A stretch of DNA of 32,000 nt from Crocosphaera subtropica ATCC 51142 (lineage in GTDB: Bacteria > Cyanobacteriota > Cyanobacteriia > Cyanobacteriales > Microcystaceae), in assembly GCF_000017845.1 (NCBI RefSeq), contig NC_010547.1:210001-242000 (forward strand), written 5' to 3'. Below the pieces are notes generated by a model that saw only the letters and a list, made by a program, of their open reading frames with translations, ran no database searches and was not told the DNA's origin. The translations under genes were made by a program, and so were the position numbers. Positions within the stretch are counted from its first letter, which is position 1, and each line of letters begins with the position of its first letter. Shown here piece by piece: positions 9,479 through 28,907 of the stretch.

Positions 9479-9507
9479 AACCCTACAACCCTTACCGTAC
9501 TTGGATT

Positions 9508-11454: not shown

Positions 11455-14400
11455 CTAAATAAATTTTAATAATTTTTTTAATCCTATGATTTGTTCATCT
11501 AAGTCTAACTGATAATTAAAACTAAAAACTTTATATCGAGTATGCCACTCGAAATTATCTCGCTGAATTGCATCTTTCTGTTTTTGTTCAGGATTATTGT
11601 GAACTGAACCATCACAAAACACGGCTATTTTTGGGTGTTTATATACAAAATCGGGTTTACATTCAGCATCAGGAAAATAAACTTGAGCGTGATCAGGAAG
11701 AGGAAGACCATGAGATTTAATGGCTTCTAAAACCATCGCTTCGTATTTGGAATTAGGATCACTTTGTTGTAAAAGTTGTTGGTAAGCTTCATCTCTTTGA
11801 TTATCTTGTACAGTATTCAGTTGACTCTCAGTAAGCTGTTCAAGAAAGTTTTTGATTAAATGTCGATTAAGATAAGGATGGTCAAATTGATTTTGATAGG
11901 ATAGCAAGCATTCATAACAAGCTTGAGTACAACTAGGTTTATCTTGCTTAAAGTGACAAATATCGAGAGCTTCTTGAGCTAAAGAAGAAAAAGCTTGCGG
12001 ATTATCAAGAATTTGAGATAAAACCCCTGCGCCTCCCTCAGAAGCTTCCCAGAAAAGAAGATGTTTTCCATCTCCCAATCTTTCAGAGGCTAATTCTTCT
12101 GCTTCTAGCTTGTAGTAGCCTTGAATGGCTTTTAAGAGTGCATACTGCAAAGTAATTAAAAATTCTTGGGTTTGATGTTCAGGTAGCTCTTGCGGTTCAA
12201 TAACCAAAATATTCGAGGTATCAGACACCATAAGATTGACTCCTGGTTGGAGTGTTTGAGAAACATTATTTTGATTAGAATCACTCCATTCTCCTGTTTG
12301 GGTATCTAATTTAAAGCCTTGTTCTTGATTGCGAAGTAAACCGCGATTAATACGTCGAATTTGAGCAGTTTCGCCGTAGCAGATTTTTAAAAGTTCTGTT
12401 CCATCAGCAGCCGTAACCAAAGCTTCCCGACGCTTGTGAGAGTCATATTGAAAGTGAGTGGTCAAATGATAACCATATTTGAGCCGTTCTTCTTCATCAC
12501 AAGTGATGCGTTCCCGTCGTCGGGTAATCATCGTATCGAGAGGGAGAACATAGTGAAGGCGATCGCTTAATTTTGCTCCACAATTACTACAAGTATCCCG
12601 TTCGGCTCCTTGAACACCATCATGGAAATAACCACAATTACTACAGGTACTGACTTTTTCGTATTCAATACCTTTGGGAGACACTCTGGTTTTAGTAATC
12701 TGAAATTTACTCCCTTCATAATAAATAACATTTCTCGGAGCTAATTCCCTAATGGCAACAATACGAGGACGAGCAATAAATTCTCCTTTATCCCCCGCAG
12801 GAATAAAACCACGAACAGGAAGGCGAGGGAAGTTAAAGCCCGGCAAAAAGCCTTCGCTGGCAAAATAGCGGTAAGGATAAAATTCAAACTCACTTTGAGA
12901 ACGTCCCTTGCTTCCTTGCCCCACTAATAAATCTCGTTGACGTTTAGCATCACTTTCTAACGCTTCTGCTGTCTTCTTGTCCTCATCAGTAATAATCCCT
13001 TTCGCTGCTTTATCTATGGTGGCACGGGCTTCATCTAACTGACGGTTCGCATCTTGATATAATCTACGCCAGCGTTCGCACCGTAAATCAAAAACATGAA
13101 GTGCATCAGCCAGCTTTTCTTTAATCCAGTCAGCACTATACCAACTGGTCCGATTAAGATCCGTTTGGCAAAAGATATCATTAAGAATAAGTTGAGCATC
13201 GTTCAGACATTTTCTGAAAGTTTCAGGGCTAAGGGTCAAATTTTGGCGGATTTCATCTTTGAGAGGATACTTCTCTTTATCTAAATCGAGAATTTGGTTC
13301 ATTGAATTCCCCAAATCAACCCCTGTATAAGACAGCCAAAGGGAATAAAGATGAGACTTGACTAAATCAGGGTTGCCTAATTCTAGTTTCGGTGGCACAA
13401 CCACCCCTGATACCATTTGTGCTTGTCGTCTATAAAAGTATTGGTCATGGCCACTACCATAGGCAGCATAGGTAATAACCAAGGCTTCTTGTCCCCCTCG
13501 TCCTGCTCGTCCACTCCGTTGTGCATAGTTGGCAGGGGAAGGGGGAACGTTTCGTAAGTGAACCACACTTAAATCAGAGATATCAATCCCCAATTCCATT
13601 GTCGGAGAACAAAATAAAGCTGCTAAATCACCTTTTCTAAACTTATCTTCTCGTACTTGACGATATTTATTAGGGACTTGTCCAGTATGTTCTCGTCCTT
13701 CCATTTTTTGAATGGTCTGCCCCTGTTCTTCATAAAACTGTTGAAAAAATGAGTTAACCTCTTGAGTGGTAAGATCACTCCCTTGTAGTCGTTTATTATT
13801 GGTGGGATCAATGTCAATTTGATTAACTTTTTGGGCTTTCCAGACCATTGCATCAATGCGTAGCTGGAATTCATTTTCCTCACAAGTAAGGTAGCCACAA
13901 TCACAAAGAACTTTGACCAACGATTCAATTAAGCTGTTATATTCGTCTTCTGTGAGGGAATAACCCCAAATAACATCAGAACGTAAATATCTTGCTACTT
14001 TACTACGGGGTGTTAACTTAACTGTTCGTCCTTTTGATTGTGGGTTATTAGTATAAGTGGCTTTGGGAGCAGGAGGAAGATACTCATACTCATCAAATTT
14101 CCAAGTATCGTTTATGGTTTGAGAAACTTCTCGTTGTATTTCTTTGATACGGTTGGGTTGCAGTAAGGCCGCATCAATGGCTAAATTCTTTCTAAGTTGA
14201 TCTAAAATAACGGTTACAGCTTGCCAACGTTGTTGAAAGGTTGCTTTTGCAAGAATGGGATTAAAATGTTTTTGCCAAGGACTCTGAGCTTGACACATTT
14301 CTTCTAATTCAGAATATTCAATGCTCAATAATCCACATTGTTCTAGATTAGGTTGAACAATTCGCCATCCTCTTTTTAAATCCTCATAGAGACGATATTC

Positions 14401-16800
14401 AATCAAATGTTCAAACGCTCTTTCATTCTTCGTTTTCCCAAATCCAAAATCCGACGGTTGTTTAGCATAAGCTTCTTGAGATAAGCCCATTTCTTGGACA
14501 ACAGTAGCGGCCAGTTGTTCATGGGTTAAGGTTCCCTTTTGTTGCAAGGCTTTATTTAAACTGGCTCTCAGGAAAGAGGTTTGTACGAAGTCATTAAAAT
14601 GACCTGCTTGTAAGGAAGCATCTTGACGATTATCGGTAAAACTGAGAATTTTCGCTGCTGTGGGCTTAATATGAGGGTTGAGTTTGAGACGATTGACGGT
14701 TGATAAGCAAAGTAAGGTAGTGGCGGTACTGCGTCCTTCACTGCTGAGACGGGATAATTTACGGTATTCGGTGGTTTTTCTATCATAAACCACACCACAG
14801 TTGAGGCAAGTTAAGAAGGGTTTAGGAATAAACCAACAGCGAACAGGTTGAATAGGATCGTTTTTGCTAACGGCCCCTGTGGGAATCATTCCATTAGGAT
14901 AAACATATAATTCTTGGGGAATAAATTTAGCGAATTCTTTCTTAATTTTCCTTCCGCTTTTATTGTGGCGAAACCAATTATCGGGTAAACGATCTTCGTC
15001 ATCAATGTCCCATAAATCCGTTTCATCTAAGGTTAAATAACCTTCGGTAATGTCTTCGTTATCTTCGTTGATGGCTGTGGGTAATAATGGGGTAATTTGA
15101 TGTTTTTCAGCATCATGCCGTACAACATAATAATCTTGTCCACATTCCCGACAGAAAACAAGGGGAAATAGTAAACGATCTTGGGTAGTTTTATATTGTC
15201 CTTCTAAGGTTAATTTTCTGTGTTCATGGGGTTGCAACGTTGCATAAACGCTACCCCCTTGAGAGATAAATTGATGTAAACGGAAGGGCAACCCTTTCGT
15301 TGTTTTGTCCTTGGTTTTTTGGGCAGTCAGTTGACTACTCCAGAGCAACATCTCCCGTAAAATGTCTAAACAGTTTTGAAAGTCATGATTCGTTAGTTCG
15401 GCCAGTTGACTGGCCCCATCTTTCAGTGAGATGGGAGTACGCCGTTTCAGATATCCCTCTTCTTCTTCTAAACCAAAGGTCATCTCTATCCAAGCACTCA
15501 AAGGATGCTCTTTAAAGGCTGTTTCGGTTCGTTCTGTTTCTGGGGGGAGTCCTTGCTTTAAGCACTGTTGCAGTTCGGAAACTGTGGGATAAGGACGAGC
15601 GATCGCTTTTTCTAAGGTTTCATCAATCACCTGCTCTGATTTAATTTCTACCCCAAAAAGTTTACTAGCAACTTCTGCGACGGTTTGTTGACGGTTAGCG
15701 CGAGTGCCTTCGGTGGACATGGTAGCCGAAGTTCCAATACACAGTAAAGGTTTACCGCAGCGTTGTTTTAATTTACGAATGACTAAGGCGACATCAGCCC
15801 CCTGGCGACCTCGATAAGTATGTAATTCGTCTAAAATCAAGAATTTTAGGTCAGGAGAGGCTACCAGTTTATCTTCATGGACACGGGTAAGCATCAATTC
15901 CAACATGACATAGTTAGTCAACAGAATATGGGGCGGGTTATTCTGTATATCGGTCTTATCGGATAAGTTTTCTTGTCCTGTGTATTTGGCGACTTTGATA
16001 TGAGTGTTAGGGACGTTTTCTAGAAATTTCTTGAATTCTTCTTCTTGGGAGTTAATCAGAGCATTCATAGGATAGACTAAAATGGCTCTAACTCCCTTAA
16101 GATGGGGATTTTTCAATAAGTCGTTAATGATGGGGACAACGTAGGTTAAACTTTTTCCTGACCCGGTTCCTGTTGTCACCACATAGGGTAAATTTTGCTG
16201 TACGAGTTGAAAGGCTTTTTCTTGGTGGTCGAAAAAGTGGAAATTAGGAAAATAGCGATCGCAGTCTGGATGCAAAATATTGCTTTGAATCAGTTGGCTA
16301 ACGGTAGCACTCCGTTTATAGGGTGGGTTGAGTTGGACGAGGGGATCTTTCCAGAGTTTTTCTTTGTCTAATTCTTCTTTTACAAAGGTTTTGAGGCGTG
16401 AATCTTTTATTTTGAGGAAACTTTCGATATAACTACGATAATCGTTGATAACTTCATCTCTCAGGGTAAAAATATCAAATTTTTGCGGTTGATCTGGTTT
16501 ATTATCAGGGGTTTCTATTACCTCAGTCGGAACAACTTGCACCCCATTACGTTGATTAACGTAGCTAATTAAATGATGGGCGAGAGATTCGCTCACCGTT
16601 GGCTCATCAAAGACTTTTTGAGCTAATTGGACAAAATCCCATTCTTCGGGAATCCCTGAAAAAAGGGCTTCTAGTTCCTCGTTAGTGAGACTGTCTACTC
16701 CTGTGGTGTCCAGTTTTTGGGGGTACATTTCCATCCCAATAAGGGTACTGGTGGAGGCGATCGCACTTTTTCCTTTAGCGAGGAGGTCTTTGAGCTTCAT
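11455..16800 (-). CDS. Giant DExH helicase fused to a DUF1998 (MrfA-type zinc-binding) domain and a C-terminal Vsr/DUF559-like nuclease-fold module; DrmA+DrmB-like or DruE-like
   Basis: 1781 aa. Helicase motifs are I TGTGSGKS, II DELH, III SAT (GTSATMS) and VI QRSGRAGRGG. Cys clusters are CRECG, CLNCG and CSNCG..CSNCG (about nt 12575-12655). The DUF1998-type signature CTQACYECLLSYQNQFDHPYLNR is present. The C-terminal KPDFVY..IAVFCDGSVHNNPEQKQKDAIQRDNFEWHTRYKVFSF (about 11455-11700) resembles DUF559/Vsr-like PD-(D/E)xK domains. Confidence 0.85.
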   Translation of the reverse strand: MKLKDLLAKGKSAIASTSTLIGMEMYPQKLDTTGVDSLTNEELEALFSGIPEEWDFVQLAQKVFDEPTVSESLAHHLISYVNQRNGVQVVPTEVIETPDNKPDQPQKFDIFTLRDEVINDYRSYIESFLKIKDSRLKTFVKEELDKEKLWKDPLVQLNPPYKRSATVSQLIQSNILHPDCDRYFPNFHFFDHQEKAFQLVQQNLPYVVTTGTGSGKSLTYVVPIINDLLKNPHLKGVRAILVYPMNALINSQEEEFKKFLENVPNTHIKVAKYTGQENLSDKTDIQNNPPHILLTNYVMLELMLTRVHEDKLVASPDLKFLILDELHTYRGRQGADVALVIRKLKQRCGKPLLCIGTSATMSTEGTRANRQQTVAEVASKLFGVEIKSEQVIDETLEKAIARPYPTVSELQQCLKQGLPPETERTETAFKEHPLSAWIEMTFGLEEEEGYLKRRTPISLKDGASQLAELTNHDFQNCLDILREMLLWSSQLTAQKTKDKTTKGLPFRLHQFISQGGSVYATLQPHEHRKLTLEGQYKTTQDRLLFPLVFCRECGQDYYVVRHDAEKHQITPLLPTAINEDNEDITEGYLTLDETDLWDIDDEDRLPDNWFRHNKSGRKIKKEFAKFIPQELYVYPNGMIPTGAVSKNDPIQPVRCWFIPKPFLTCLNCGVVYDRKTTEYRKLSRLSSEGRSTATTLLCLSTVNRLKLNPHIKPTAAKILSFTDNRQDASLQAGHFNDFVQTSFLRASLNKALQQKGTLTHEQLAATVVQEMGLSQEAYAKQPSDFGFGKTKNERAFEHLIEYRLYEDLKRGWRIVQPNLEQCGLLSIEYSELEEMCQAQSPWQKHFNPILAKATFQQRWQAVTVILDQLRKNLAIDAALLQPNRIKEIQREVSQTINDTWKFDEYEYLPPAPKATYTNNPQSKGRTVKLTPRSKVARYLRSDVIWGYSLTEDEYNSLIESLVKVLCDCGYLTCEENEFQLRIDAMVWKAQKVNQIDIDPTNNKRLQGSDLTTQEVNSFFQQFYEEQGQTIQKMEGREHTGQVPNKYRQVREDKFRKGDLAALFCSPTMELGIDISDLSVVHLRNVPPSPANYAQRSGRAGRGGQEALVITYAAYGSGHDQYFYRRQAQMVSGVVVPPKLELGNPDLVKSHLYSLWLSYTGVDLGNSMNQILDLDKEKYPLKDEIRQNLTLSPETFRKCLNDAQLILNDIFCQTDLNRTSWYSADWIKEKLADALHVFDLRCERWRRLYQDANRQLDEARATIDKAAKGIITDEDKKTAEALESDAKRQRDLLVGQGSKGRSQSEFEFYPYRYFASEGFLPGFNFPRLPVRGFIPAGDKGEFIARPRIVAIRELAPRNVIYYEGSKFQITKTRVSPKGIEYEKVSTCSNCGYFHDGVQGAERDTCSNCGAKLSDRLHYVLPLDTMITRRRERITCDEEERLKYGYHLTTHFQYDSHKRREALVTAADGTELLKICYGETAQIRRINRGLLRNQEQGFKLDTQTGEWSDSNQNNVSQTLQPGVNLMVSDTSNILVIEPQELPEHQTQEFLITLQYALLKAIQGYYKLEAEELASERLGDGKHLLFWEASEGGAGVLSQILDNPQAFSSLAQEALDICHFKQDKPSCTQACYECLLSYQNQFDHPYLNRHLIKNFLEQLTESQLNTVQDNQRDEAYQQLLQQSDPNSKYEAMVLEAIKSHGLPLPDHAQVYFPDAECKPDFVYKHPKIAVFCDGSVHNNPEQKQKDAIQRDNFEWHTRYKVFSFNYQLDLDEQIIGLKKLLKFI

Positions 16801-16897
16801 GGGTGGTTTAAGGCTAAGTCGTTGCTTTTAAAATGCCCAATTTTTCTAGAATAGTTCACAGTTACAATAGAATGAAGTTTATTCAGTAACAAATTCC

Positions 16898-17161
16898 ATG
16901 CAAATCACGATTGAAATACCAGAAGACCTTGGTAATATTCTTGAAGTCAAATGGGGGAATCTCTCTGAACGTACCCTTGAGTCTTTAGCTGTGGAAGGAT
17001 ACCGTAGTGGGATATTAACCAGGGGACAAGTCAGGCAATTACTAAATCTTGCTTCTTTCTATGAAGTTGAACAATTCCTAAAAGACCGAGGGGCTGATTT
17101 ACTCTATAGTGAAGAAGATTTGGAACAAGATATTCAAATTGCCCACGAATTAACTAATTGA
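16898..17161 (+). CDS. UPF0175-family antitoxin-like protein, apparently orphan
   Basis: The 87-aa product ..LAVEGYRSGILTRGQVRQLLNLASFYEVEQFLKDRG.. matches my recollection of cyanobacterial UPF0175 proteins. These normally precede a DUF3368 PIN-like toxin; here only five codons follow. Confidence 0.55.
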   Translation: MQITIEIPEDLGNILEVKWGNLSERTLESLAVEGYRSGILTRGQVRQLLNLASFYEVEQFLKDRGADLLYSEEDLEQDIQIAHELTN

Positions 17162-17175
17162 CAGTGATCGTTTAA

Positions 17176-17613
17176 TTAGGTTACTAATTTAATCCAGCTA
17201 ATTTGATTTTTAACGGTATTATATAAACGTTTGTCTCCTGTATAAAAGTCACAATTTAGATGTTGTGCTAATGCTAGATAATGAGCATCATAAGAAGCAG
17301 ATAAATTAAACTGATTAGCTAATTCAAACGCAGTCTGATGGAAATTTTGTAATTCTTGATGTCCATAAAGAGTAATATTAAAGCTGAGGGCGTCTAGTAA
17401 AGCCTCTTTTGCTTGTTCTGTTGTAATTTGTCCTGCTTTACTCATACGATAAAGTGCGTTGGTTACTTCATAATAAAATAAAGTAGGGGCAACAACAGTT
17501 ATTTGATTGGCTTGCCATTCTTCCCATAAGGTAATCAAGGTAGAATTAGGAACTTGAGTATTAACTAAACGAACAATAAAGTTAGCATCAACACAGACTA
17601 AATGATTAGTCAT
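17176..17613 (-). CDS. vapC: PIN-domain ribonuclease toxin, VapC family
   Basis: The four PIN acidic positions are in context: VCVDANF, YYEVTNAL, SASYDAHYLALA, FYTGDKRL. The start overlaps the upstream antitoxin gene by 8 nt. Confidence 0.8.
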   Translation of the reverse strand: MTNHLVCVDANFIVRLVNTQVPNSTLITLWEEWQANQITVVAPTLFYYEVTNALYRMSKAGQITTEQAKEALLDALSFNITLYGHQELQNFHQTAFELANQFNLSASYDAHYLALAQHLNCDFYTGDKRLYNTVKNQISWIKLVT

Positions 17614-17887
17614 TTTCTTCCTCTTTAACAGTCTCAGGAAAACAAGCTTGCATTAATTCTTCACTACGTTCTTCTCGCATTTGATAAAAAATTTCATCAA
17701 TAGAAGGTTCTAGTGGTTTTCCTCCTCGTTGTTGACAAATCTTCTGATTTCGTTCGAGAATTCGCTTTTTAGTCGTTTCCCAATCTTGTTGGGGATGTAA
17801 TTCAGATTCGAGTAAGATTCGTTCTTCCTCAGATAAACTTTTAATAATTTGAGCTAGGGTTTTGACTAATTGAGTATTCATGGTCAC
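17606..17887 (-). CDS. VapB-type antitoxin
   Basis: A 93-aa acidic protein immediately upstream of vapC and overlapping it. Its N-terminal LxxIIKSLSEEER motif is shared with the antitoxin at 18330-18548. Confidence 0.65.
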   Translation of the reverse strand: MTMNTQLVKTLAQIIKSLSEEERILLESELHPQQDWETTKKRILERNQKICQQRGGKPLEPSIDEIFYQMREERSEELMQACFPETVKEEEND

Positions 17888-17915
17888 TTGTATTTATCCA
17901 CTATTTAAGACACTT

Positions 17916-17968
17916 CTAATATTCCATCATATCCCATGCAGCTAATACTAATCTTTGGGTACAATATT
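17916..17968 (-). pseudogene. Remnant copy of the last 16 codons plus stop of the methyltransferase gene
   Basis: The 53 nt match 19204-19256 at 48/53 positions without gaps. It translates as YCTQRLVLAAWDMMEY*, versus YRTQRLVLAAWDMMGY* at the true methyltransferase C-terminus. An in-frame TAA lies immediately upstream. Confidence 0.75.
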
Positions 17969-17985
17969 ACTTCTTTGGGTTTAAT

Positions 17986-18330
17986 TCAAAGTTGAAAAGT
18001 ATTTTTTAATCTATTATTCAAAGTTTGTAATAAACTTATATTTAACTCCCCGAGTTTTCTGGTTATTAAATTTCGTTCAATTGTTACTATCCTAGAAACT
18101 CTAACTTTAGAGGTCATTTTTAGTCCTGTCTTAGAAAATTCAGGATGTGTTGTCTCTATTAGAAATTCTTCAGCACCGAGATTATTAATATTTTGAGAAG
18201 AAATAAAACAAACTGTAATATCTATTCCCGACAAATCAACCCATAATACGACAGCAGGACGAAGTTTTGTTGTACTTAAATCGGTAAAAGGAAAGGGAAC
18301 TAAAACAATATCACCTTTTTTTAGAGACAT
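17986..18330 (-). CDS. mazF: MazF/PemK-family endoribonuclease toxin
   Basis: The N-terminus KKGDIVLVPFPFTDLSTTKLRPAVVL is the hallmark MazF/PemK/CcdB-fold start. The product is 114 aa. Its start shares one nucleotide with the upstream stop (TAATG). Confidence 0.8.
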   Translation of the reverse strand: MSLKKGDIVLVPFPFTDLSTTKLRPAVVLWVDLSGIDITVCFISSQNINNLGAEEFLIETTHPEFSKTGLKMTSKVRVSRIVTIERNLITRKLGELNISLLQTLNNRLKNTFQL

Positions 18331-18548
18331 TAAATAGGTTCTCCATCTTCTAGGGTATAAATATCTGGTTCATCTTTGAGAAAATCAAAAGAATGACTTT
18401 TTTGTGCCAAGTTCATAATATCCTGTGTTGTAACTAAAGAATCGTCAAAGAATAATTTTTGTTCAAAGATTTGGCGTTCTTCATCGGACAGTGATTGAAC
18501 GATTGTGATTAGGGAGTCAATTAATTTTTGATTCATGGTTAACTTCAC
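18330..18548 (-). CDS. Antitoxin partner of the MazF-like toxin
   Basis: A 72-aa acidic protein translationally coupled to the toxin gene. It carries the N-terminal LITIVQSLSDEER motif. Confidence 0.6.
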   Translation of the reverse strand: MKLTMNQKLIDSLITIVQSLSDEERQIFEQKLFFDDSLVTTQDIMNLAQKSHSFDFLKDEPDIYTLEDGEPI

Positions 18549-18586
18549 AGATTAAGTGTTCTAATATTTGATAATATCTCAAGCAG

Positions 18587-19036
18587 CTAAAAGCTTTCCC
18601 ATAAAAAAGGATAACTTTCAGGGTTATCAGTGTATTTTGCCTTCACTGGATTTTGTTTAATATATTCCCAAGTATTAAGAAACTGTTGACGATTTTTGAT
18701 TAATGTATCATAGCGTCCATCTTGCCAAACTTTGCCGATATGTTTCATTACTTTAGGAATTTGTTTAGAACTATAGCTTTTTATACTGTGTAAAAAACTA
18801 CCAATTGACCAATATTTATTATCTGATTTTTGATAGGGTTTAATTAATAGATGAACGTGATCTGACATAATCACAGCAGTATATAAATAATAGCGTTTGT
18901 CGTGAAAATATAGGCAAGCATTTAGAACAATTTTTCTCGCTTCATTATTTAATTCTAATCGCTCATAAGTGTTGAAGGTAATGAAATAAATTCCTCCTTG
19001 AATTTCTAATTTCGGCAATGGTTTTTTGTAGGGCAT
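18587..19036 (-). CDS. REP-associated tyrosine transposase (RAYT, IS200/Y1 HUH family)
   Basis: The HUH motif is SDHVHLLI, the catalytic-Tyr region is HSIKSYSSKQI, and the C-terminal YIKQNPVKA is present. At 149 aa it is a single domain. Palindromic repeats flank it on its upstream side. Confidence 0.75.
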   Translation of the reverse strand: MPYKKPLPKLEIQGGIYFITFNTYERLELNNEARKIVLNACLYFHDKRYYLYTAVIMSDHVHLLIKPYQKSDNKYWSIGSFLHSIKSYSSKQIPKVMKHIGKVWQDGRYDTLIKNRQQFLNTWEYIKQNPVKAKYTDNPESYPFLWESF

Positions 19037-19064
19037 AATGGTTTATAAATCAATATTTTTTTAG

Positions 19065-19200
19065 GAGTGCGAGCATCTTGCTCCCTAAACCTTCAATAAC
19101 TCCCTAAACCCTCAATAGCGAGGGAGAAGCTCACACCCCTTTTCTTGGGAATGGGAGCATCTTGCTCCCTAAACTTTAAACAGTGAGCGAGACGCTCACA
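19065..19200. repeat. Cluster of REP-like palindromes of the (G/T)GAGC-NNN-GCTC(C/A) family
   Basis: Copies are GCGAGCATCTTGCTCCCTAAAC (19069-19090), GGGAGCATCTTGCTCCCTAAAC (19153-19174) and GTGAGCGAGACGCTCAC (19183-19199). A hybrid copy lies near 19121-19135. A tandem CTCCCTAAACC-N-TCAATA pair lies at 19081-19118. Confidence 0.8.
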
Positions 19201-19203
19201 TTC

Positions 19204-22200
19204 CTAATATCCCATCATATCCCAAGCCGCTAAAACTAATCTTTGGGTACGATATTCGCCGTATTTCCTCATCTCATTATTCTTGAGAACTCGGAAAGTT
19301 TCAGAGGGAAAATCTTCGCCATAAACATCAGCAGGATCTAAAATATAGCGTAGTTCATCACGGGTTAAACCGTAAAGTTTGGCAAATTTAGCATCAAGTT
19401 CTGCTCTTAATATAGCCCGTCTATCTTCATCCCAAATAAAGGGTTCTCCACTGTATCCCATATCCTCCGCAAAGGGTTTCATATCATAAGCAGTGTAAAC
19501 TAATTCTAAGACTCGACTGCTGATAAATTCGATGTCTTCTTCTGTGTACCAGTCTGGGGGAATAACGGGGAGTTGTTTTACAATGAAGAAATTTAAAGAT
19601 GTTCCCCCCATCTTTTGTCTCACTACAAAGTCAAAACATATACTGTTAAGATAAGCATAAAAGCAGCTTAATAAATTAATATTACTTTCACGGCTTATTA
19701 ACAAAGGAGCTTTATTACTGATGGCTGTTTTAGGTAAAATGCTACTAATAAAAGTTCGTTCATCAGTTGATCTGCAAATATCTCTAAACCCTATTAACCA
19801 TTCCTTATCCCACTTTCCTGCTAACTTATTTTCCACCTCAATTTTATCAACCCAATAACGAGGTTGTACGGTGCGATCGCATTCCATTTTCTCTTCTAGT
19901 TTCAAGTCATGGGTATTACCTTGATCATCATAACTTGCCCAACGATGATCAAATTGATGAAACATCTTTGCTTCATATAAAGGCACTAATCCTTCTCCTG
20001 CTTCACTTTTAAATAAATGACTATCATTACTCATGTGAAACATTGCCATAAATGAAATACCCCAAGGATTATGACCTGTCGCTTGGTGCGGATAATCTCC
20101 GAGGGAACCTCGGAGTTCCGCATCCGCTTTTTCGTTTTCTAAAACAGGAACACGCTGATAAATTTTCTTAGTTAATTCTGCATCAGCTTTTGTCCGAAAA
20201 ACAGGACAAGTTAAAGTATTCGGATTCATTAACTTAATGTCTTGTGGTGATAATTGAAAGACTCTATTTTTATCTTCAATTTGTTTCGCTTGAGTTAGGA
20301 AAAAGGAAAAATTAGTATTTTGAGTTGCTTTACCGCTAATTCCTAATAAAGAAAATTTCATACGACTATCAACAGCAGAAAATAACTTTTCTCTATTCTC
20401 AAAGTCATAAAGACTACTCAAGTTTTCTTGTTGAATTAAATCACCGAAGAAATTTTGATAAGTCGCATCCGTTGCTATTCCAGTAGGAATAATGACCCCG
20501 ACTTGCCCATCAGAGTTAATTAATTTTCTAACTGTTTCAGCAAACACAGCATAAGTATTAATATCTCCTTTACTGGTTAATAAAAATCGTGCTGATTCTC
20601 TAATAAATTTACCCTGTGCATCAGCATCATGTTTCGCTTCTTCAAACGCTTGTAATAATGTAGGATTAGTGTGTGCTAATTGCTTAATTAACTTAGTTCT
20701 CGCTGCCTTATTTTTAGCTGTAGCGATCGCTTCATCTTTAGAAGCAAAGAATTCCTTTTCTTGCAACTTAATTCGTTCCCAAGGAGGATTACCCAATACA
20801 CAACTAAATCCACCTTCCTCAAACACTTCGGGAAATTCTAAACACCAATGAAAAAAGCGTTTTTCTTGCGCTAATTGATTAGCTGCTTTAACCACTGAAG
20901 TTGTCGTTTTATTCCCTTCTAATAATCGATGTAACGCTTCTGTTGTGGGAAGTAACTGTAAATTATTTTCTGTTAAGGGCATAAAAAAGGCTGCCGTCCA
21001 CAAATTACAAGCCGAATAATCACGCCACCATCCCTCATTTTTATCACTATGACGACTTAAATATTGTTCCTTTTTCAACTTAACATCATCGGTATTATTT
21101 TCAGGAATCTTCCCTAATGCTTGCCAATCTTGAGCATACTTTTCTAAGCTAATTTCTAAATTATCAAACAAAGATAATTGATGACTTTCAATATTTTTTC
21201 TTTCCTCTTTATTACGCTTTTTAAACGCAGTCGCCCATTTTTTTTCATCTCCCGTCACCGCTTTAAATGCACCATCAGGAATGCCTTCTTTTAACACAGA
21301 AATATCCAACACACCCACCAAAGAATTACCGCATTTAATACGATGATCCAAGAAATTTAAAGGATACCCTTTACAAAAACCTTCAATCCATAAAGCCACT
21401 TTACACAGATCCACACTCAAAGGATTATAATCTACCCCATAGATGCAATGCTGAATGACATCCCGTACCGCTTGACTCAAGGGTTCCGGGGATGGGTGAA
21501 CCTCTCCTGTGCGAATTCGGGCTAATTCCTTACCAATACGCCTTGCTGCTGCTAATAAAAAGTGTCCACTCCCACAAGCGGGATCACAAACTTTAATACT
21601 TAATAAAGCTGCTTCTTGCTGTTGTTGAAGACTCAGGGGTGGGAGCGTCTCGCTCCCTAGATTATCTTTGTTTGTGCCTAGATTATCTTTATTTTTCCCT
21701 TTTTGGGGATTAGCGAGCAGGATACTCGCACTACTGCTGCTGCGGCTGACTTCTGCCAATTTTTCGGCAATGACAGGTTCTAACGCAGACTTGATCAACT
21801 GTCCTACTAATTCAGGAGGAGTATAATAAGAGCCAGTGGTTTTGCGATCGCTTCCTGTCACCAATTTAAAGACATAAATTCCTTCATAAGTGACAATTTT
21901 GGGCGTAAAATCAAGCAAACTTTCATAAACACTGCCCAATTCTTCCACATCCAAGGCCGCATAATTGACCCGTCGTAACTGACCCCGATTCTCGTAGAGA
22001 GAAAGATGACGAAGGGCTAAGAGCAAGTCATGATTATCAATGGCATAACTATCCAACGTTTCTAAGGATTTTGAGCCAAATAAGTCCCCATTGAGAGGCG
22101 ATAACCCCAATAATTGACCGCGCCAACTCTCATCAAATAAACTAAACGTTACCCGTAACCCTTGCCAAATATCTTGAAACCCTTCCCGACGATAACTTTT

Positions 22201-23016
22201 ACGTTCCGCCAACGCCCTTAAACGATTAATACTGTAATATTCCGTGTAAATTCTTGCTTTATCAATATCTTCCCCGTCTAACAATAAATTACGAGATTCA
22301 GCCACCATTAAAAACAATAAACGGTAAATCATCAGTAATAATTGACGATAATAGTCTTGTTCCGATAACTCCCCTCTCATTACCGCTTCTCGTAACTCCT
22401 CATTTTGAGGATGTTGCAGAAACCCACTTCCCAATAACTTTAACGCTTCTTCGACTCCATCCCGTAGGCGATCGCGTACCCGTCCCCCTTGTTGCAAAGC
22501 CTCTTGATGATAGAATTCCAAGAGACAACTATCGACATCATCAATGCCATCTGGTAAACGAGTCCGGTGAAAAAGACGATAAAATAAGCCAAATTCCGCA
22601 AAATTTTCGTTATTAAAGATTTGCTCTAGATCAAACTCCACAAACGTTAAACGAGTCATCAAAGAACAATCTCGTAATAACCGCCACTGAAACCCATTGG
22701 TAACAATGCCCCATAAATGCTCTGTGCGGTTAAGATATTCTTGTAATAAGCCATGCGCTGACAGTCTGGGACGACCGGACGGGGAACGTTGTTCTAAGGA
22801 TAACTTACAGCCAATGACGTGCAGGGGAGGAGAGGGGTTAATGTCCTCAGAAGACGCTATTTCCTCGGCCCGATGGGAAATAGCAAAGGTTTGACCGTCA
22901 ATGACTTCTGCTTTGACTTGTAAAATCGGTTCATATCCCAACAGTTTCAGTAAAGGAACTGCCCAATATTCCCGTGTTTCGCTGGTTCCGGTCTCTTCTT
23001 CCCCGACTCGTTCCAA
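19204..23016 (-). CDS. Gamma-class N6-adenine DNA methyltransferase, Eco57I/DrmMI/PglX-like; main body, 5' end interrupted (likely pseudogene)
   Basis: The GSYYTPPELV motif, the SAM-binding motif DPACGSGHFLL (about 21559-21592) and the catalytic NPPW (20779-20790) are all present. The track start is a TTG with no Shine-Dalgarno. The frame stays open and protein-like upstream to 23181 with no start codon. Confidence 0.85.
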   Translation of the reverse strand: MERVGEEETGTSETREYWAVPLLKLLGYEPILQVKAEVIDGQTFAISHRAEEIASSEDINPSPPLHVIGCKLSLEQRSPSGRPRLSAHGLLQEYLNRTEHLWGIVTNGFQWRLLRDCSLMTRLTFVEFDLEQIFNNENFAEFGLFYRLFHRTRLPDGIDDVDSCLLEFYHQEALQQGGRVRDRLRDGVEEALKLLGSGFLQHPQNEELREAVMRGELSEQDYYRQLLLMIYRLLFLMVAESRNLLLDGEDIDKARIYTEYYSINRLRALAERKSYRREGFQDIWQGLRVTFSLFDESWRGQLLGLSPLNGDLFGSKSLETLDSYAIDNHDLLLALRHLSLYENRGQLRRVNYAALDVEELGSVYESLLDFTPKIVTYEGIYVFKLVTGSDRKTTGSYYTPPELVGQLIKSALEPVIAEKLAEVSRSSSSASILLANPQKGKNKDNLGTNKDNLGSETLPPLSLQQQQEAALLSIKVCDPACGSGHFLLAAARRIGKELARIRTGEVHPSPEPLSQAVRDVIQHCIYGVDYNPLSVDLCKVALWIEGFCKGYPLNFLDHRIKCGNSLVGVLDISVLKEGIPDGAFKAVTGDEKKWATAFKKRNKEERKNIESHQLSLFDNLEISLEKYAQDWQALGKIPENNTDDVKLKKEQYLSRHSDKNEGWWRDYSACNLWTAAFFMPLTENNLQLLPTTEALHRLLEGNKTTTSVVKAANQLAQEKRFFHWCLEFPEVFEEGGFSCVLGNPPWERIKLQEKEFFASKDEAIATAKNKAARTKLIKQLAHTNPTLLQAFEEAKHDADAQGKFIRESARFLLTSKGDINTYAVFAETVRKLINSDGQVGVIIPTGIATDATYQNFFGDLIQQENLSSLYDFENREKLFSAVDSRMKFSLLGISGKATQNTNFSFFLTQAKQIEDKNRVFQLSPQDIKLMNPNTLTCPVFRTKADAELTKKIYQRVPVLENEKADAELRGSLGDYPHQATGHNPWGISFMAMFHMSNDSHLFKSEAGEGLVPLYEAKMFHQFDHRWASYDDQGNTHDLKLEEKMECDRTVQPRYWVDKIEVENKLAGKWDKEWLIGFRDICRSTDERTFISSILPKTAISNKAPLLISRESNINLLSCFYAYLNSICFDFVVRQKMGGTSLNFFIVKQLPVIPPDWYTEEDIEFISSRVLELVYTAYDMKPFAEDMGYSGEPFIWDEDRRAILRAELDAKFAKLYGLTRDELRYILDPADVYGEDFPSETFRVLKNNEMRKYGEYRTQRLVLAAWDMMGY
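21643..21705. repeat. REP-like palindrome plus 21-bp tandem duplication embedded in frame in the methyltransferase
   Basis: The perfect palindrome GGGAGCGTCTCGCTCCC (21645-21661) is followed by CTAGATTATCTTT twice (21658-21670 and 21679-21691). It is translated as KNKDNLGTNKDNLGSETLPP. The layout (hairpin, then CCCTA(A/G)A.. duplicates) matches the intergenic copies at 19065-19200. Confidence 0.7.
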
Positions 23017-23124
23017 GCGACGTTGAAAAATCCGCCATTGATCCTTAGCTTCACCCCAAGCAAAGGCAATTTCATCCTCTAATTTAGTGGATTTTTCCAG
23101 CCCAAAATGAACATTATTTTGACC

Positions 23125-23313
23125 AAAGATTGGAGATTGCCGATTGGAGATTGGAGATTGAGTAAAAACAAGCCTTTGCTTTCAAGCATTGGTAAATCTA
23201 AAATCTATCCTCAAAAATCAACAATTAATCTAAAATCTACAATTTTTAATCCCAAGCCCCTGTCTTTTAAGCAGGGGTCAATCTGCAATCTTCCCTCTGT
23301 AATCTGCAATTGC
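23125..23313. mobile_element. 189-bp MITE-like non-autonomous insertion with a TTGACC target duplication, interrupting the methyltransferase 5' end
   Basis: The inverted ends are AGATTGGAGATTG (23127-23139) and CAATCTGCAATCT (23279-23291), 12/13 as reverse complements. Internal features are GATTGGA heptamers, AATCTAAAATCTA twice, and the hairpin CCCCTG-N9-CAGGGG (23257-23277). Direct TTGACC copies lie at 23119-23124 and 23314-23319. There is no coding capacity. Confidence 0.65.
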
Positions 23314-23403
23314 TTGACCTTTAATATCTCCTGATGCTAGTTCAGTGGTGAGATCAGAAGCAAGAAGATTTCCAGCAATACGGATAGCAGTAGCAGTGTT
23401 CAT
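23278..23403 (-). pseudogene. Detached N-terminal 41 codons of the methyltransferase
   Basis: ATG at 23403 opens MNTATAIRIAGNLLASDLTTELASGDIKGQAIADYRGKIAD*. It is in the same frame as the main ORF (387 nt = 129 codons apart). The last roughly 11 codons and the stop are supplied by the inserted element. Confidence 0.6.
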
Positions 23404-23445
23404 GGTAATAAAAAAAGATTCAGGGTTGAATAGAAACTAGGGAGT

Positions 23446-23526
23446 GTGAGCATCTTGCTCACTGAATTAGAAATATGAGCATCTTGCTCACTAAGAGGAG
23501 ATAATGAAGATGAGCATTTTGCTCAC
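23446..23526. repeat. Three REP-like 17-bp palindromes between the SNF2 and methyltransferase genes
   Basis: Copies are GTGAGCATCTTGCTCAC (23446-23462), ATGAGCATCTTGCTCAC (23475-23491) and ATGAGCATTTTGCTCAC (23510-23526). Each has 6-7-bp arms and a 3-nt loop. They belong to the same family as 19065-19200. Confidence 0.8.
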
Positions 23527-23550
23527 TGACAGAAAAAATGAGTTAAATTG

Positions 23551-26436
23551 TTATTCAGGTAGGAGAATATAAAGACCCAAAACATCCATCGGTAACTGAG
23601 GTTCAACCTTCCGGAAAGTCCCTTCCTTAGTGAACTTTCTGACACGACGATGAGAAGTTAATAAATTCTTAGCCCGTTCTTTGGCGATCGCCTCTAAACT
23701 AGGCATCAAATCCTCTAAACGGTTCAGGACTTTTTCAATCCATCGTTGCTTGTCTTCATAGTCCAAATCCCCAGTAGGAACAGTATTATCGAGTAAATTA
23801 AGGGTGTCAGCTTGGGATAACCATTGAGGGGCATTAGGGGTTCCGGTAAACCCTCTCACTAAACACTCTTCAGCTAATAAGGGTTGAGTATTTTTTCCGC
23901 CCAATAAATAGCGCAACCGCAATGAAAGAATGATGGTGGGTTTGGTGACAGCATCCGTTACCGTAACCCCACAACGAGAGGCGATAGGATCTTGCCCTTC
24001 TAAGGCTTCCTCGAACAAATAACGGGCTAATCCTTCGACTAAAGGATGATTCCGTCCCACATATTCAACTCCTTCCGAAACAGGGGTTGTAAAAGCAATT
24101 TTGCGGGGCTGGTTGCCAATAATAGGTTGTAAGCAGGGAGGAATTGTCTTTAACTCATATCCTTGTTTCTTTTTAATCAGGGAAGTTCCCAATTGATCAC
24201 AAGCATTTTTAACAAATCGCTCCACATCCTTCTCATTACCCAGAATTTCATCGGCTTCGGTTAATTCTTGTTGCACTTCTTCTGGTTTAATGGAACGTTG
24301 AGCAAAGCGAGTACGATTTTGTTTTTCTCGTTCTACTGCTTTATCCCAGTGATGATGAACTTCTTTGAGAGAAGCATCTTCTTGTAAGTCTTCAAATAAG
24401 CTTAATTGACGGGCTGTGACGGTATCAGAATGTTCAAATAGGGATTGAAAGACCGCTTCTTGTACCGTCGTGCTATCCATTGGTAACGGAACAGTAATTC
24501 CCAGACTGCGGTGAATTGTCACTGCTTTTCTGAGCAATACTTGTAAAATTGCCCCATCAACGGGATTATCTTGACCATACAAGAGAATACATTTAACATC
24601 AGGGTTAGCCTGTCCATAACGGTCAATTCTTCCCTCGCGTTGTTCTAATCGATTAGGGTTGAAGGGTAAATCGACATGGCAACAAGCATTAAAATGTTCT
24701 TGAAGGTTAATCCCCTCACTTAAACAGTCTGTGGCCACTAAAACCCGTTGAGAGTAGGATTTTAATTCATCTAGACGAATTTCCCGTTCATCCTCAGATA
24801 ATTCGCCTGTGATAGCAATAATCCGCACTTGGCTATTGCGTTGCTTCTCTAAAACTTCTTGCAACGCTTGAGCATAATAGTTAGCAGTGGCGATATAACG
24901 ACACCAAAGAATGGGGTTATAACCTTCTTCTAACAACTCCTTGACTAATTTAATGGTCTGTTGCAGTTTTTTATCTTTTTTTCCTGTGAGTTGTTCAGCA
25001 ACCTTAACAAAAGCCCTTAATTTGCGTTTTTCCCAGTCTTGATAGGCTTTTGTTCCCTCTTCAACCACTGCGGTTGGAACAATATCAACGGATTTTTCCT
25101 CTTCCGTTGCATCACAGACATAAGGAGACGCTAAGTGATCGTAATTGACTCCTAATTCTTCACTTAACTCACTGGTTAATTCCTTAGTATCAGCATCTTT
25201 TTTAACCTGTCTCGATAAGGTAGCGATCGCTGCTGCTGGAGACGACATCACACAACGAATAATAGCTAACGCTGACCAGTATCTTCCCCGTTTTTGAGCA
25301 TGAGTTAAACTATCATCAACCGATTGAACTAACCCTCTGGCAAAATCATAGACATCATCTAATAAGTCTCGATATTCTTTTGATAACTGGTAGGGATATT
25401 CTAATGCCTCACGTTTCGGAAAGGGCGTTTCTTCGTCCATCCAATTCTGTACATCAGCCCTTCGTCGTTGAATAAAGTGCTGTGCGAGATCAATGCGTTG
25501 CTGTTCACTGAGGGCATCTAATTGTAAATGACTAAAATCAGGGTTTAAAAAGCCCAAAATGGAGAGAAACGAGGCTTCGATCCCACTGTGAGGGGTAGCG
25601 GTTAGTAATATTAAATGTTGCTTGGGATTTTCGGCTAGTTTACTTACTAATTGATGGCGTTGTTGGGTTTTGCCTTCCTTTCCATTGGCCGCCGTATGAA
25701 CTTCATCTACAATCACTAAATCAGGACAATGGGTCAAAAAACTAGCACGACGGCGTTCTGACTTAGCATAATCAAGACTGACAATAATATGGCGATAATA
25801 ACTAAAGATATGGTGATCGCTTGACGGTAATTCTCTCTCTAATTTAGCCACCGTTCCGGAACGAATGACCACCGCATCAATGTTAAATTTTTGCTTTAAT
25901 TCTCGCTGCCATTGATCGCATAATTGAGGAGGACATAAGACCCCTATACGTCTAATTTCTCCTCTATCGAGTAGTTCACGGGCAATCAAAGCAGTTTCGA
26001 TGGTCTTCCCGATGCCTACGTCATCTGAAATTAATAGGCGAATAACTTCTTGCTTTAACGCCATCAATAAGGGAACTAACTGATAGGGACGAGGACGCAC
26101 CGATAAACGACCTAAACAACGAAATGGCCCTGCCCCACTGCGAAGACTCAAACGGGCTGCATCAAGGAGTAGTCGCCCTGCTTCATGATTGCGTAAATGA
26201 GTGCCTTGAGGATGGGGAAAGGTTGCTGGTTCTATCTTTTCTCCCAAGATTGTGTAGATTCCGCAAACTTGTTCTTCACTTCCTGATAAGGGACGTAAAC
26301 GAATAACCTCTTCCTGCTCGGCTGGTAAAACAACCCACTGCCGATTTCGACATGAAACAATAGACCCCGGTGTTGGTGGCGAAGTAACTACAGAGAGAGG
26401 AAGAACCTGATTTTGATTAGAAACGACAGCAATCAT
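23551..26436 (-). CDS. SNF2/RAD54-family helicase, DrmD-like
   Basis: 961 aa. Motifs are I DDVGIGKT, II DEVH (25697-25711), III LLTATPH and VI QREGRIDRYGQ. It is co-oriented directly upstream of the methyltransferase. Confidence 0.85.
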   Translation of the reverse strand: MIAVVSNQNQVLPLSVVTSPPTPGSIVSCRNRQWVVLPAEQEEVIRLRPLSGSEEQVCGIYTILGEKIEPATFPHPQGTHLRNHEAGRLLLDAARLSLRSGAGPFRCLGRLSVRPRPYQLVPLLMALKQEVIRLLISDDVGIGKTIETALIARELLDRGEIRRIGVLCPPQLCDQWQRELKQKFNIDAVVIRSGTVAKLERELPSSDHHIFSYYRHIIVSLDYAKSERRRASFLTHCPDLVIVDEVHTAANGKEGKTQQRHQLVSKLAENPKQHLILLTATPHSGIEASFLSILGFLNPDFSHLQLDALSEQQRIDLAQHFIQRRRADVQNWMDEETPFPKREALEYPYQLSKEYRDLLDDVYDFARGLVQSVDDSLTHAQKRGRYWSALAIIRCVMSSPAAAIATLSRQVKKDADTKELTSELSEELGVNYDHLASPYVCDATEEEKSVDIVPTAVVEEGTKAYQDWEKRKLRAFVKVAEQLTGKKDKKLQQTIKLVKELLEEGYNPILWCRYIATANYYAQALQEVLEKQRNSQVRIIAITGELSEDEREIRLDELKSYSQRVLVATDCLSEGINLQEHFNACCHVDLPFNPNRLEQREGRIDRYGQANPDVKCILLYGQDNPVDGAILQVLLRKAVTIHRSLGITVPLPMDSTTVQEAVFQSLFEHSDTVTARQLSLFEDLQEDASLKEVHHHWDKAVEREKQNRTRFAQRSIKPEEVQQELTEADEILGNEKDVERFVKNACDQLGTSLIKKKQGYELKTIPPCLQPIIGNQPRKIAFTTPVSEGVEYVGRNHPLVEGLARYLFEEALEGQDPIASRCGVTVTDAVTKPTIILSLRLRYLLGGKNTQPLLAEECLVRGFTGTPNAPQWLSQADTLNLLDNTVPTGDLDYEDKQRWIEKVLNRLEDLMPSLEAIAKERAKNLLTSHRRVRKFTKEGTFRKVEPQLPMDVLGLYILLPE

Positions 26437-27751: not shown

Positions 27752-27806
27752 ATAGATATAGCTTATGCCCCACCCCGTAATTAGAGTGGGGTATAGAGTA
27801 GTTCAG

Positions 27807-28451
27807 TTAGTTTCCAGGGAGGGTGAATTGAATTTTAGGCATCCCTTCTAATAGATGAGGGGGAACAATATCCTCAGTGAAAATATCCTGAAATTGTTGT
27901 CTAACTTCAGGACTTTGAAGAGCTTGATCGAATCTTTGACGAGACAAAGCTAAAAACTGCGCGATGACTCGTTGTCGTTCGGCATAACCAACCATAGCTA
28001 AACTTTGGATCAAACCCTGGACTTGTTGCTCGGAAAGAATAGCAATTTGCTCATCAGTCATGCCAAGTTGTTTAAGATCCACTTTCGGCTTAGACTTGGC
28101 GGTTTGATCTCGATTTTGTCGTGGCTGTTCCTCTTGAGTTGGCTCAGAAGTCTTTTGTTCGATATCAGTTTCGTGGTTGTCTTCGCTTTGTTCAATGGTA
28201 GTGGTCTGTGGTTCAGGTTGAGGTAGAGAGTCATCGGAAGGAGTTTGATTAATAGCCTGATCGACCACAGAAGCGATCGCATCATCAAGGGTTTGTCCTT
28301 CTTCGATTGCCATACAAACATATTCAAAGCCTTCGAGTTGCTTATCAGTTAAATGCTCGACATCTTTAACCTTGAGTCCCTCAAGAATAGCGGGGATTTG
28401 GTCGAAAGCAACAGAATATTTAGCAGCGATGGTTTGAAGTTTATCGTTCAT
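27807..28451 (-). CDS. Hypothetical soluble protein, short paralogue of the 26624-27751 product
   Basis: 214 aa. It has the N-terminal module MNDKLQTIAAKYSVAFDQIPAILEGL.., an acidic Q/E/P/T-rich linker, and the C-terminal module AERQRVIAQFL..EVRQQFQDIFTEDIVP. Confidence 0.65.
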   Translation of the reverse strand: MNDKLQTIAAKYSVAFDQIPAILEGLKVKDVEHLTDKQLEGFEYVCMAIEEGQTLDDAIASVVDQAINQTPSDDSLPQPEPQTTTIEQSEDNHETDIEQKTSEPTQEEQPRQNRDQTAKSKPKVDLKQLGMTDEQIAILSEQQVQGLIQSLAMVGYAERQRVIAQFLALSRQRFDQALQSPEVRQQFQDIFTEDIVPPHLLEGMPKIQFTLPGN

Positions 28452-28901: not shown

Positions 28902-28907
28902 GGTGAA

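Follow-up and report, generated by a model that had tools for sequence, protein, structure and literature searches.

Identification of the Locus

The window analysed here is a stretch of 32,000 nt from Crocosphaera subtropica ATCC 51142 (NC_010547.1, positions 210,001–242,000 of the forward strand), and all positions below are given in its own coordinates, 1–32,000. It carries a locus that is very probably an ARMADA Type I anti-phage system, composed of armA, armB, and armC in the gene order of cyanobacteria and lying as cargo between the genes for a coupling protein and a relaxase. The host replicon of the locus is 429.7 kb long (429,701 bp; CP000807.1 in Table S1 of Bell et al. 2025). Three large open reading frames (ORFs) are co-oriented on the minus strand, at 23551–26436 (961 aa), 19204–23016 (1270 aa), and 11455–16800 (1781 aa). 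Catalytic motifs are intact in all three products, namely the helicase Walker and DExH motifs in the first and the third, as well as the motif that binds S-adenosylmethionine (SAM) and the NPPW motif in the second. An initial annotation of this DNA had recognized an SNF2 helicase, an N6-adenine methyltransferase, and a DExH helicase with DUF1998 in these ORFs, and the Pfam matches agree with it.

The 1781-aa protein is 100% identical to ACB54342.1 (cce_4996; WP_009546245.1). For this protein of C. subtropica ATCC 51142 (CP000807.1, cce_4996), the Table S1 entry of Bell et al. 2025 (PMC12458937; bioRxiv 10.1101/2025.09.15.676423) reads "ARMADA Type I helicase"; about 52,000 helicases of the YprA family were analysed in that study. 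As this very helicase is listed there, the locus is not new; it is already catalogued, and it is neither an unclassified relative, nor a new hybrid, nor a new variant of DISARM. The intermediate position between DISARM and Druantia proposed in the initial annotation is essentially the conclusion that the literature reached, but its description as a hybrid or an unclassified relative does not stand beside the catalogue entry.

ARMADA was defined by a YprA-like helicase accompanied by a BrxHII/RapA-like helicase and a PglX-like methyltransferase (PMC12458937). The latter two components are common to class 1 DISARM, and the YprA-like helicase is nearest to that of Druantia; hence, the system was named the "missing link" of DISARM and Druantia. 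The ARMADA helicase clade sits beside Druantia, not inside it, and apart from DISARM. The order in cyanobacteria is helicase-methylase-YprA, and the helicases of both Type I and Type II have a C-terminal nuclease of Vsr type that is predicted to be active (all PMC12458937). Components, gene order, C-terminal Vsr-type nuclease, and three-gene content of the window locus all match Type I, with no difference in kind. Particular to this copy are the interruption of armB by an element resembling a miniature inverted-repeat transposable element (MITE), a cargo of transposase and toxin-antitoxin genes, and the location in a conjugative region. The same Table S1 also holds the Planktothrix NIES-204 helicase BBD57063.1 and an entry for Chroococcidiopsis thermalis PCC 7203 on CP003598.1, and the 1781-aa protein is 60–61% identical over the full length to the helicases of the Planktothrix p4 and Chroococcidiopsis pCHRO.01 plasmids. 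The placement of the large helicase rests on profiles, identity, and the catalogue entry.

ARMADA Type II (armABCD; E. coli NCTC 12900, EDL933 OI-172) has homologous ArmA, ArmB, and ArmC in the same order. It differs by ArmD, in which a GajB-like UvrD helicase is joined to a RelE-like domain, and often by inactive EEP and Vsr extras on ArmC, neither of which is present here. Screens for PLD, UvrD, and RelE domains covered the non-overlapping window ORFs of at least 100 aa in Pfam, together with the neighbouring ORFs in PADLOC. No ArmD (GajB-like UvrD helicase with RelE) was found in any window ORF scanned, and the downstream neighbour of armC is the convergent coupling-protein gene, which agrees with Type I rather than with Type II. 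The absence of a PLD nuclease, noted already in the initial annotation, also held, as all non-overlapping window ORFs of at least 100 aa were free of PLD domains. No further defence-family match was obtained among the neighbouring ORFs in PADLOC.

The synteny sample consisted of 11 cyanobacterial loci (the window, L002–L006, and L010–L014), found by plasmid BLAST and by look-ups of exact proteins. A single-protein scan of genome contigs gave two close relatives only, and the wider sample hence comes from these other routes. The armA-armB-armC trio is present on two Planktothrix plasmids (L002 and L004), on Chroococcidiopsis pCHRO.01 (L003), Nostoc punctiforme pNPUN02 (L005), and a plasmid of Nostoc NIES-2111 (L014), as well as in a Crocosphaera metagenome-assembled genome (MAG; L006, the same locus as L009), a Microcystaceae MAG (L010), and Limnoraphis (L011). 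In L012 (on a 5.6-Mb contig) and L013 (Myxosarcina), the fetched stretch covers no more than the methylase gene's end and, after it, armC, with the armA region lying beyond. Both armA and armB are visible in the other nine loci, and in each of them armA is directly upstream of armB. The flanking genes of the compared loci are unrelated to each other. A trio that is kept across loci with unrelated neighbours argues that the three genes form one conserved unit, and the synteny on which the initial annotation had made its claim depend was, therefore, found in other cyanobacterial loci.

Helicase-Nuclease ArmC

The gene armC (11455–16800, minus strand; cce_4996, ACB54342.1) codes for a DExH helicase-nuclease of the YprA family of 1781 aa, identified by Pfam, PADLOC, relatives in the PDB, and the catalogue. 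Its Pfam domains are DEAD (aa 191–363), Helicase_C (aa 1027–1103), and MZB/DUF1998 (aa 1551–1632), with GSGKS (aa 213) as the Walker A motif, followed by DELH (aa 324). CxxC pairs are located at aa 550, 665, 1386, and 1404. Those at aa 550 and 665 fall within the insert of about 660 aa that separates DEAD and Helicase_C, and they are hints from the sequence only. ARMADA helicases are described as having BrxA-like, beta-barrel zinc-binding, and MarR-like inserts between RecA1 and RecA2, and a coiled-coil helix-turn-helix past RecA2; inserted domains between RecA1 and RecA2 are shared by the ARMADA and Druantia helicases (PMC12458937).

The best PADLOC models for ArmC were DruE3 (318 bits) and DruE1 (295 bits), followed by five further DruE models with 214–244 bits, as compared to 45 bits for DrmA, which matched the Helicase_C core only. 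PADLOC models carry no curated cutoff, while NCBIfam models do. The DruE matches cover only aa 124–766 and 1059–1680 of ArmC. The large protein is placed by these scores within the DrmA/DrmB/DruE families, as the initial annotation had proposed, and since the DruE models are far above DrmA, it is DruE-like rather than a fusion of DrmA and DrmB. That the helicase and DUF1998 parts form one polypeptide was seen correctly at first, as there is a single ORF of 1781 aa, but a single chain is the norm of the YprA family and DISARM is its sole consistently split branch (PMC12458937), so that no fusion has to be assumed. The best solved relatives are 9tu7 (a 2108-aa helicase), 6znp (MrfA/YprA), and 9wae (a 1970-aa helicase). 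The first of them, 9TU7, is DruE of E. coli Druantia III-A, a single-stranded DNA (ssDNA)-binding 3'-to-5' helicase. ArmC is 95% identical to the copy of the L006 MAG. Elsewhere on the replicon, outside the window, cce_4793 (ACB54141.1) codes for 1030 aa that match ArmC aa 752–1781 at 1029 of 1030 positions and represents a truncated duplicate.

The C-terminal part of ArmC, about aa 1680–1781 (11458–11763, minus strand), is a predicted nuclease domain of the Vsr/DUF559 clan. The last residues (approximately 100) gave sub-threshold Pfam matches only, to MTES_1575 (E = 0.007), DUF559 (E = 0.02), and Vsr (E = 0.023). When the C-terminal domains of 21 homologues were excised and scanned, MTES_1575 was matched by 17 of them, DUF559 by 12, and Vsr by two, with a best E-value of 1e-5 and no matches to anything else. 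The Vsr/DUF559-like module reported in the initial annotation, thus sub-threshold in ArmC itself, was borne out at the level of the family. Several full-length homologues have precomputed matches to PF04480 or PF18741, and some carry the JGI name 'helicase/very-short-patch-repair endonuclease'. Residues E1687, D1717 (in KPDF), D1730 (in FCDG), and H1734 are kept without exception in 41 sequences, and we take them to correspond to E25, D51, H64, and H69 of E. coli Vsr. An AF2 model of the isolated 125-aa nuclease domain had a pLDDT of 90.5. Its Foldseek matches were all weak; the best (E = 0.012) was a mitoribosomal protein, and endonucleases of restriction or transposon type, such as PvuRts1I, I-Bth0305I, TnsA, and McrC, followed at E = 0.16–0.9. 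A model of the 381 C-terminal residues (pLDDT 80) matched MrfA only, via its DUF1998 part, and is silent on the nuclease. A nuclease of the Vsr/DUF559 clan is accepted here on sequence-family grounds, with its activity predicted and the fold evidence suggestive only.

Helicase ArmA and the armA-armB Spacer

The gene armA (23551–26436, minus strand; cce_5005, ACB54351.1) codes for a BrxHII/RapA-like SNF2 helicase of 961 aa, identified by Pfam, PADLOC, and relatives in the PDB. Pfam recognized SNF2-rel_dom, Helicase_C, and ResIII; GIGKT (aa 141) is the Walker A motif, followed by DEVH (aa 244). The best solved relatives are RapA proteins, and ArmA is 97% identical to the copy of the L006 MAG. 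In PADLOC, the scores were 655 bits for DpdE (PDLC02853, full length), 320 bits for DrmD, and 210 bits for BrxHII. Against the NCBIfam equivalog model DISARM_DrmD (NF038317), ArmA reached 367 bits with a curated cutoff of 610, and it is thus related but no equivalog.

Identity with DpdE was rejected: the NCBIfam DpdE model gave 183 bits versus a cutoff of 500, and there are no dpdABC genes. Among the window ORFs scanned, no TGT-like, ParB-like, or DUF328 gene of Dpd modification was found, and the large helicase reached 67 bits with NCBIfam DpdJ, for which the cutoff is 800. Annotation based on PADLOC 2023 would probably mislabel ArmA proteins of ARMADA as DpdE.

The spacer between armA and armB contains a 29-bp tandem repeat of 2.6 copies (23447–23527), found with Tandem Repeats Finder and in the sequence, with the palindrome GTGAGCAAGATGCTCAC in each unit. 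The spacer is 147 bp long in the window because of this tandem repeat; in the other eight loci that show it, the two genes overlap in one case and are at most 115 bp apart in the remaining ones. The corresponding 25-bp stretch of L006 aligns at two places of the window, which suggests that extra copies are present in the window relative to L006. Possible roles of the repeat are those of an operator or of a terminator-like element.

Interrupted Methyltransferase ArmB

The main part of armB (19204–23124, minus strand; cce_5003, ACB54349.1) codes for a PglX/DrmMI-like N6-adenine methyltransferase, identified by Pfam and PADLOC. Pfam domains Eco57I, N6_Mtase, and MmeI_Mtase were found, and both the SAM motif DPACGSGHF and the catalytic NPPW are intact. 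PADLOC gave 257 bits for DrmMI and 205 bits for models of type IIG restriction enzyme-methyltransferases (REase-MTase), and the NCBIfam PglX matches reached 38 bits versus a cutoff of 500.

As an insertion splits the gene, its annotation begins at an internal TTG (23016) and gives 1270 aa; about 1334 aa would be expected from an intact gene. The insertion, 189 bp long (23125–23313), is flanked by a 6-bp duplication GGTCAA at 23119–23124 and 23314–23319, while L006 has a single GGTCAA. Upstream of it, codons 1–30 of armB (MNTATAIRIAGNLLASDLTTELASGDIKGQ) are left as a 5' fragment (23314–23403, minus strand) in the same frame as the main ORF. The armB gene of L006, a locus with 93% DNA identity to the window, is intact with 1307 aa, begins 27 bp past armA, and is without exactly these 189 bp. 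When the insertion was excised in silico, the N-terminus of ArmB became colinear with four homologous methylases, with an exact KGQ junction. The insertion has four in-frame stops, and its length is a multiple of three, so that the frame resumes after it. Its ends are imperfect terminal inverted repeats of about 33 nt made of heptamer repeats, and an internal GC hairpin CCCCTGCTTAAAAGACAGGGGC is present. By these features, the element looks like a small cyanobacterial MITE. A search of the window and of the 14 fetched loci gave no other copy of its hairpin, and the predicted folding of the element is not stronger than that of shuffled sequence (z = −1.1). A short-read assembly contig (Logan) of identical sequence, L001, ends within the element, and this end may indicate repeated sequence. 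Both the 189-bp insertion and the 2.4 kb of cargo between armB and armC had been overlooked in the initial annotation; the three genes are not contiguous.

In ARMADA Type II, ΔarmB strains were built and grown, and they were defence-negative. As Type II needs armB and armB is split here, it is judged probable, though with considerable reserve, that ARMADA is silent in ATCC 51142, unless the truncated ArmB still works. A fully active system, with ArmB translated from the internal TTG (23016) or another restart and thereby short of about 66 N-terminal residues, is possible but the less probable of the two. It would agree with an uninterrupted ORF of 1270 aa that keeps the SAM-binding and NPPW motifs, with intact armA and armC that are 95–97% identical to the MAG copies, and with an insertion that keeps the frame. 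On the other side stand the four stops in the insertion, the conservation of the lost N-terminus in homologues, where many positions of aa 1–67 are invariant, the lack of an obvious ribosome-binding site ahead of the TTG (inspected by eye), and the need of Type II defence for armB.

Two further parts of armB differ from L006. An in-frame expansion of a linker (…NKDNLGTNKDNLGS…) at 21621–21763 (minus strand) has 143 bp versus 29 bp in L006, as seen from a blastn gap and the translation. The presumed target-recognition part, ArmB aa ~900–1200 (19615–20514, minus strand), was delimited by windowed protein identity. It is only 41–74% identical to the L006 protein, compared to 89–100% in the remainder, and its DNA is 81% identical versus 93% in the flanks. 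This divergence suggests a swapped target-recognition region and a different specificity. In PglX-type enzymes, changes of specificity concentrate variation in one region of the methylase, as in ArmB. The hypervariable segment also echoes the E. coli ARMADA II island, in which armB varies more than any other gene. A 55-bp relic of an armB 3' end of L006 type (17914–17968, minus strand; 91% identity in blastn) lies between the mazF-like and vapB-like genes. As this relic marks an earlier end of armB, the block 17969–~21620, with the 3' part of armB, a REP-associated tyrosine transposase (RAYT), and MazEF, was probably acquired by recombination.

Relationship to Other Defence Systems

Several points weigh against the assignment to a working ARMADA Type I system. 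Published functional data found for ARMADA are all from Type II, which is a four-gene system, and none are from Type I. Methylation by ArmB is not among the results reported in the ARMADA literature found. As armB and armC are 2.4 kb apart, with unrelated genes in between, their co-transcription is not assured, and owing to the interruption of armB, the locus may do nothing in ATCC 51142. The assignment of the C-terminus of ArmC to Vsr leans on sub-threshold matches and on family-level evidence; Foldseek of the 125-aa domain did not recover Vsr itself, and a sequence search of the PDB with a profile of the 21 domains found nothing meaningful, nor did a search with the single sequence.

As to alternatives to ARMADA, the locus could in principle be read as three unrelated genes, i.e., a methylase that is an orphan or type IIG-like, an SNF2 helicase of the conjugative element (e.g., for establishment or anti-restriction), and a repair helicase of MrfA type. 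The methylase indeed matches type IIG models, the genes are inside a transfer region, unrelated cargo parts armB from armC, and MrfA is a repair helicase. However, the trio is kept on plasmids and chromosomes of distant cyanobacteria among unrelated neighbours, armA and armB keep a tight linkage wherever both are visible (nine loci), and the Type II homologues are each required for phage defence. Moreover, the helicase belongs to the defence branch of the YprA tree and not to the repair branch (PMC12458937). This reading is, thus, highly improbable.

The resemblance to class 1 DISARM (drmD-drmMI-drmA-drmB-drmC), on which the initial annotation was built, is real: genes for an SNF2 helicase and an N6-adenine methylase come upstream of that for a YprA-type, DUF1998-bearing helicase, and the logic of helicase, methylase, and nuclease is shared. 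The DrmD-like and DrmMI-like genes follow the class 1 order (320 and 257 bits, respectively), and DISARM_DrmD is the best NCBIfam model for the SNF2 protein. Membership in DISARM did not hold. In DISARM, the helicase, the DUF1998 module, and the PLD nuclease are separate proteins, whereas here there is one chain ending in a Vsr-type domain. A class 1 variant with fused drmA-drmB and with drmC (PLD) replaced by a Vsr domain is largely refuted and has hardly any probability left, as the 367 bits for DrmD are below the cutoff of 610, the large helicase has 45 bits for DrmA versus 214–318 for DruE, and the defining separate DrmA and DrmB genes and the PLD nuclease DrmC are both absent. The single chain is the norm of the YprA family and no derived fusion, and the clade of Bell et al. 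joins Druantia, apart from DISARM (PMC12458937).

To Druantia, the locus is related through DruE, which is the nearest helicase family both by profile and by solved structure, with DruE models at the top in PADLOC for the 1781-aa protein and with DruE 9tu7 as the best solved relative. Druantia has no SNF2 or PglX-like partner; its partners are DruH or DruA-D/M/F/G instead. No match to DruA-D, DruM, DruF, DruG, or DruH was found in neighbouring ORFs in PADLOC. The C-terminus of DruE is a PLD domain in type III and an inactivated Vsr in types I and II (PMC12458937). A Druantia system in which the SNF2 helicase and the methylase are novel accessory subunits of a DruE-like helicase has only a minimal probability, since there is no homologue of DruA-D, DruM/F/G, or DruH in the window and these partners are absent in 11 of 11 loci, the DruE matches are partial (aa 124–766 and 1059–1680), the Vsr-type C-terminus has intact catalytic residues unlike the PLD or inactivated Vsr of DruE, and the clade was named and set apart as ARMADA (PMC12458937).

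Some likeness exists also to BREX, as ArmB is PglX-like and ArmA is BrxHII/RapA-like, but there are no BrxA, BrxB, BrxC, PglZ, or BrxL genes here.

Genes between armB and armC

The gap between armB and armC is 2.4 kb long (16801–19203), has G+C content down to 30–34%, and contains six small unrelated genes. The RAYT, an IS200-like transposase of the Y1 type with 149 aa (18587–19036, minus strand), was identified by NCBIfam REP_Tyr_transpos (99 bits, cutoff 80) and by Pfam Y1_Tnp. A MazF/PemK toxin is encoded at 17986–18330 (minus strand; Pfam PemK_toxin, 4.9e-14), and its gene is overlapped upstream by that of a putative antitoxin of 72 aa (18330–18548, minus strand), proposed by position only, with no family match. 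A second toxin, VapC-like with a PIN domain (17176–17613, minus strand; Pfam PIN, 2.7e-9), is overlapped upstream by an ORF of 93 aa (17606–17887, minus strand), as seen from the ORF layout. The sixth gene, on the plus strand (16898–17161), codes for a small protein of the UPF0175 family with 87 aa (Pfam UPF0175, 4.7e-19).

The slot is filled in all 11 loci, with contents that differ from one to the next. Outside the window, they include BrnT with a CopG-like antitoxin, small ORFs with CopG, DUF2281, or DUF6883-DUF4926, the nuclease Uma2, DUF2887 with Uma2, DUF2513 with the nuclease Rpn and PIN/AbrB, an ORF of 187 aa, and a conserved membrane-like ORF of 149 aa, which is 87% identical between the two Nostoc plasmids. 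L012 and L013 have a cassette of 8–9 kb with DUF3800, an ABC-type ATPase, and dynamin-like/DO-GTPase-like proteins, and in L013 also with a UvrD helicase. A relationship of the window RAYT, also 149 aa long, to the 149-aa ORF of the Nostoc plasmids was rejected on comparison.

The slot was not discussed in Bell et al. (PMC12458937). It is proposed here tentatively, and with more doubt than confidence, that next to a tight armA-armB junction, the armB-armC junction is a dedicated exchange slot with a cargo coupled to ARMADA, and that these loci are nested defence islands. The slot may be nothing more than a gap that tolerates insertions between two transcription units, or it could be an intra-locus integration hotspot. 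If functionally coupled, the cargo would provide, e.g., abortive modules in reserve, or addiction modules stabilizing the locus on mobile elements.

Surrounding Transfer Genes

Convergent with armC is a gene for a TraG/VirD4-like coupling protein of a type IV secretion system (T4SS) at 9406–11250 (plus strand; Pfam TraG-D_C, TrwB_AAD_bind, and T4SS-DNA_transf). A VirB4/HerA-like transfer ATPase of 929 aa is encoded at 231–3020 (plus strand), with weak Pfam matches to DUF87 and TrwB_AAD_bind. Between these two genes, six ORFs at 3017–9339 (plus strand) had no Pfam match, and the three of them scanned in PADLOC had none either; presumably, they are divergent components of a cyanobacterial T4SS. 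On the other side of the locus, a relaxase of TrwC type with the start of a helicase domain is encoded from 30420 to 32000 (plus strand; Pfam TrwC, 6e-82, and AAA_30), and the ORF exits the window. Four co-oriented ORFs of 375, 214, 127, and 376 aa at 26624–30038 (minus strand), between armA and the relaxase gene, had no match in Pfam, NCBIfam, or PADLOC.

With transfer genes on both sides, the locus is cargo within a conjugative transfer region. The initial annotation had the transfer genes right; its maintenance genes were not confirmed on the far flank, where the TrwC relaxase and the four intervening ORFs without a family match are located. Two related loci sit on plasmids typed as conjugative.

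Proposed Mode of Action

By analogy with its relatives, ArmC would load on invader DNA in single-stranded or forked form and translocate along it as MrfA, DrmAB, and DruE do; among these three, 3'-to-5' movement was demonstrated only for DruE. DNA would then be cut by its Vsr-type domain. ArmA and ArmB would be obligatory partners of ArmC, as in Type II, where each gene and the NPPW motif are needed and the protection is non-abortive. ArmB probably reads a DNA motif via its variable target-recognition region and may mark the host DNA by N6-adenine methylation. The outcome would be a direct, non-abortive clearance, as measured in ARMADA Type II.

The new points are modest and concern no new kind of system: an armB interrupted by a MITE-like element in a model strain, a hypervariable armB segment, and an always-occupied slot between armB and armC. 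ATCC 51142 is a heavily used model diazotroph, and its methylase, annotated as intact, is actually split by the MITE-like element, which bears on readings of its methylome and of barriers to its transformation. The MAG relative and ATCC 51142 represent a natural pair of intact and interrupted Type I ARMADA. If the proposal of an exchange slot is true, its cargo together with swapping of the armB recognition region would make these loci modular, and the always-occupied slot and the hypervariable armB segment suggest a route by which ARMADA systems diversify.

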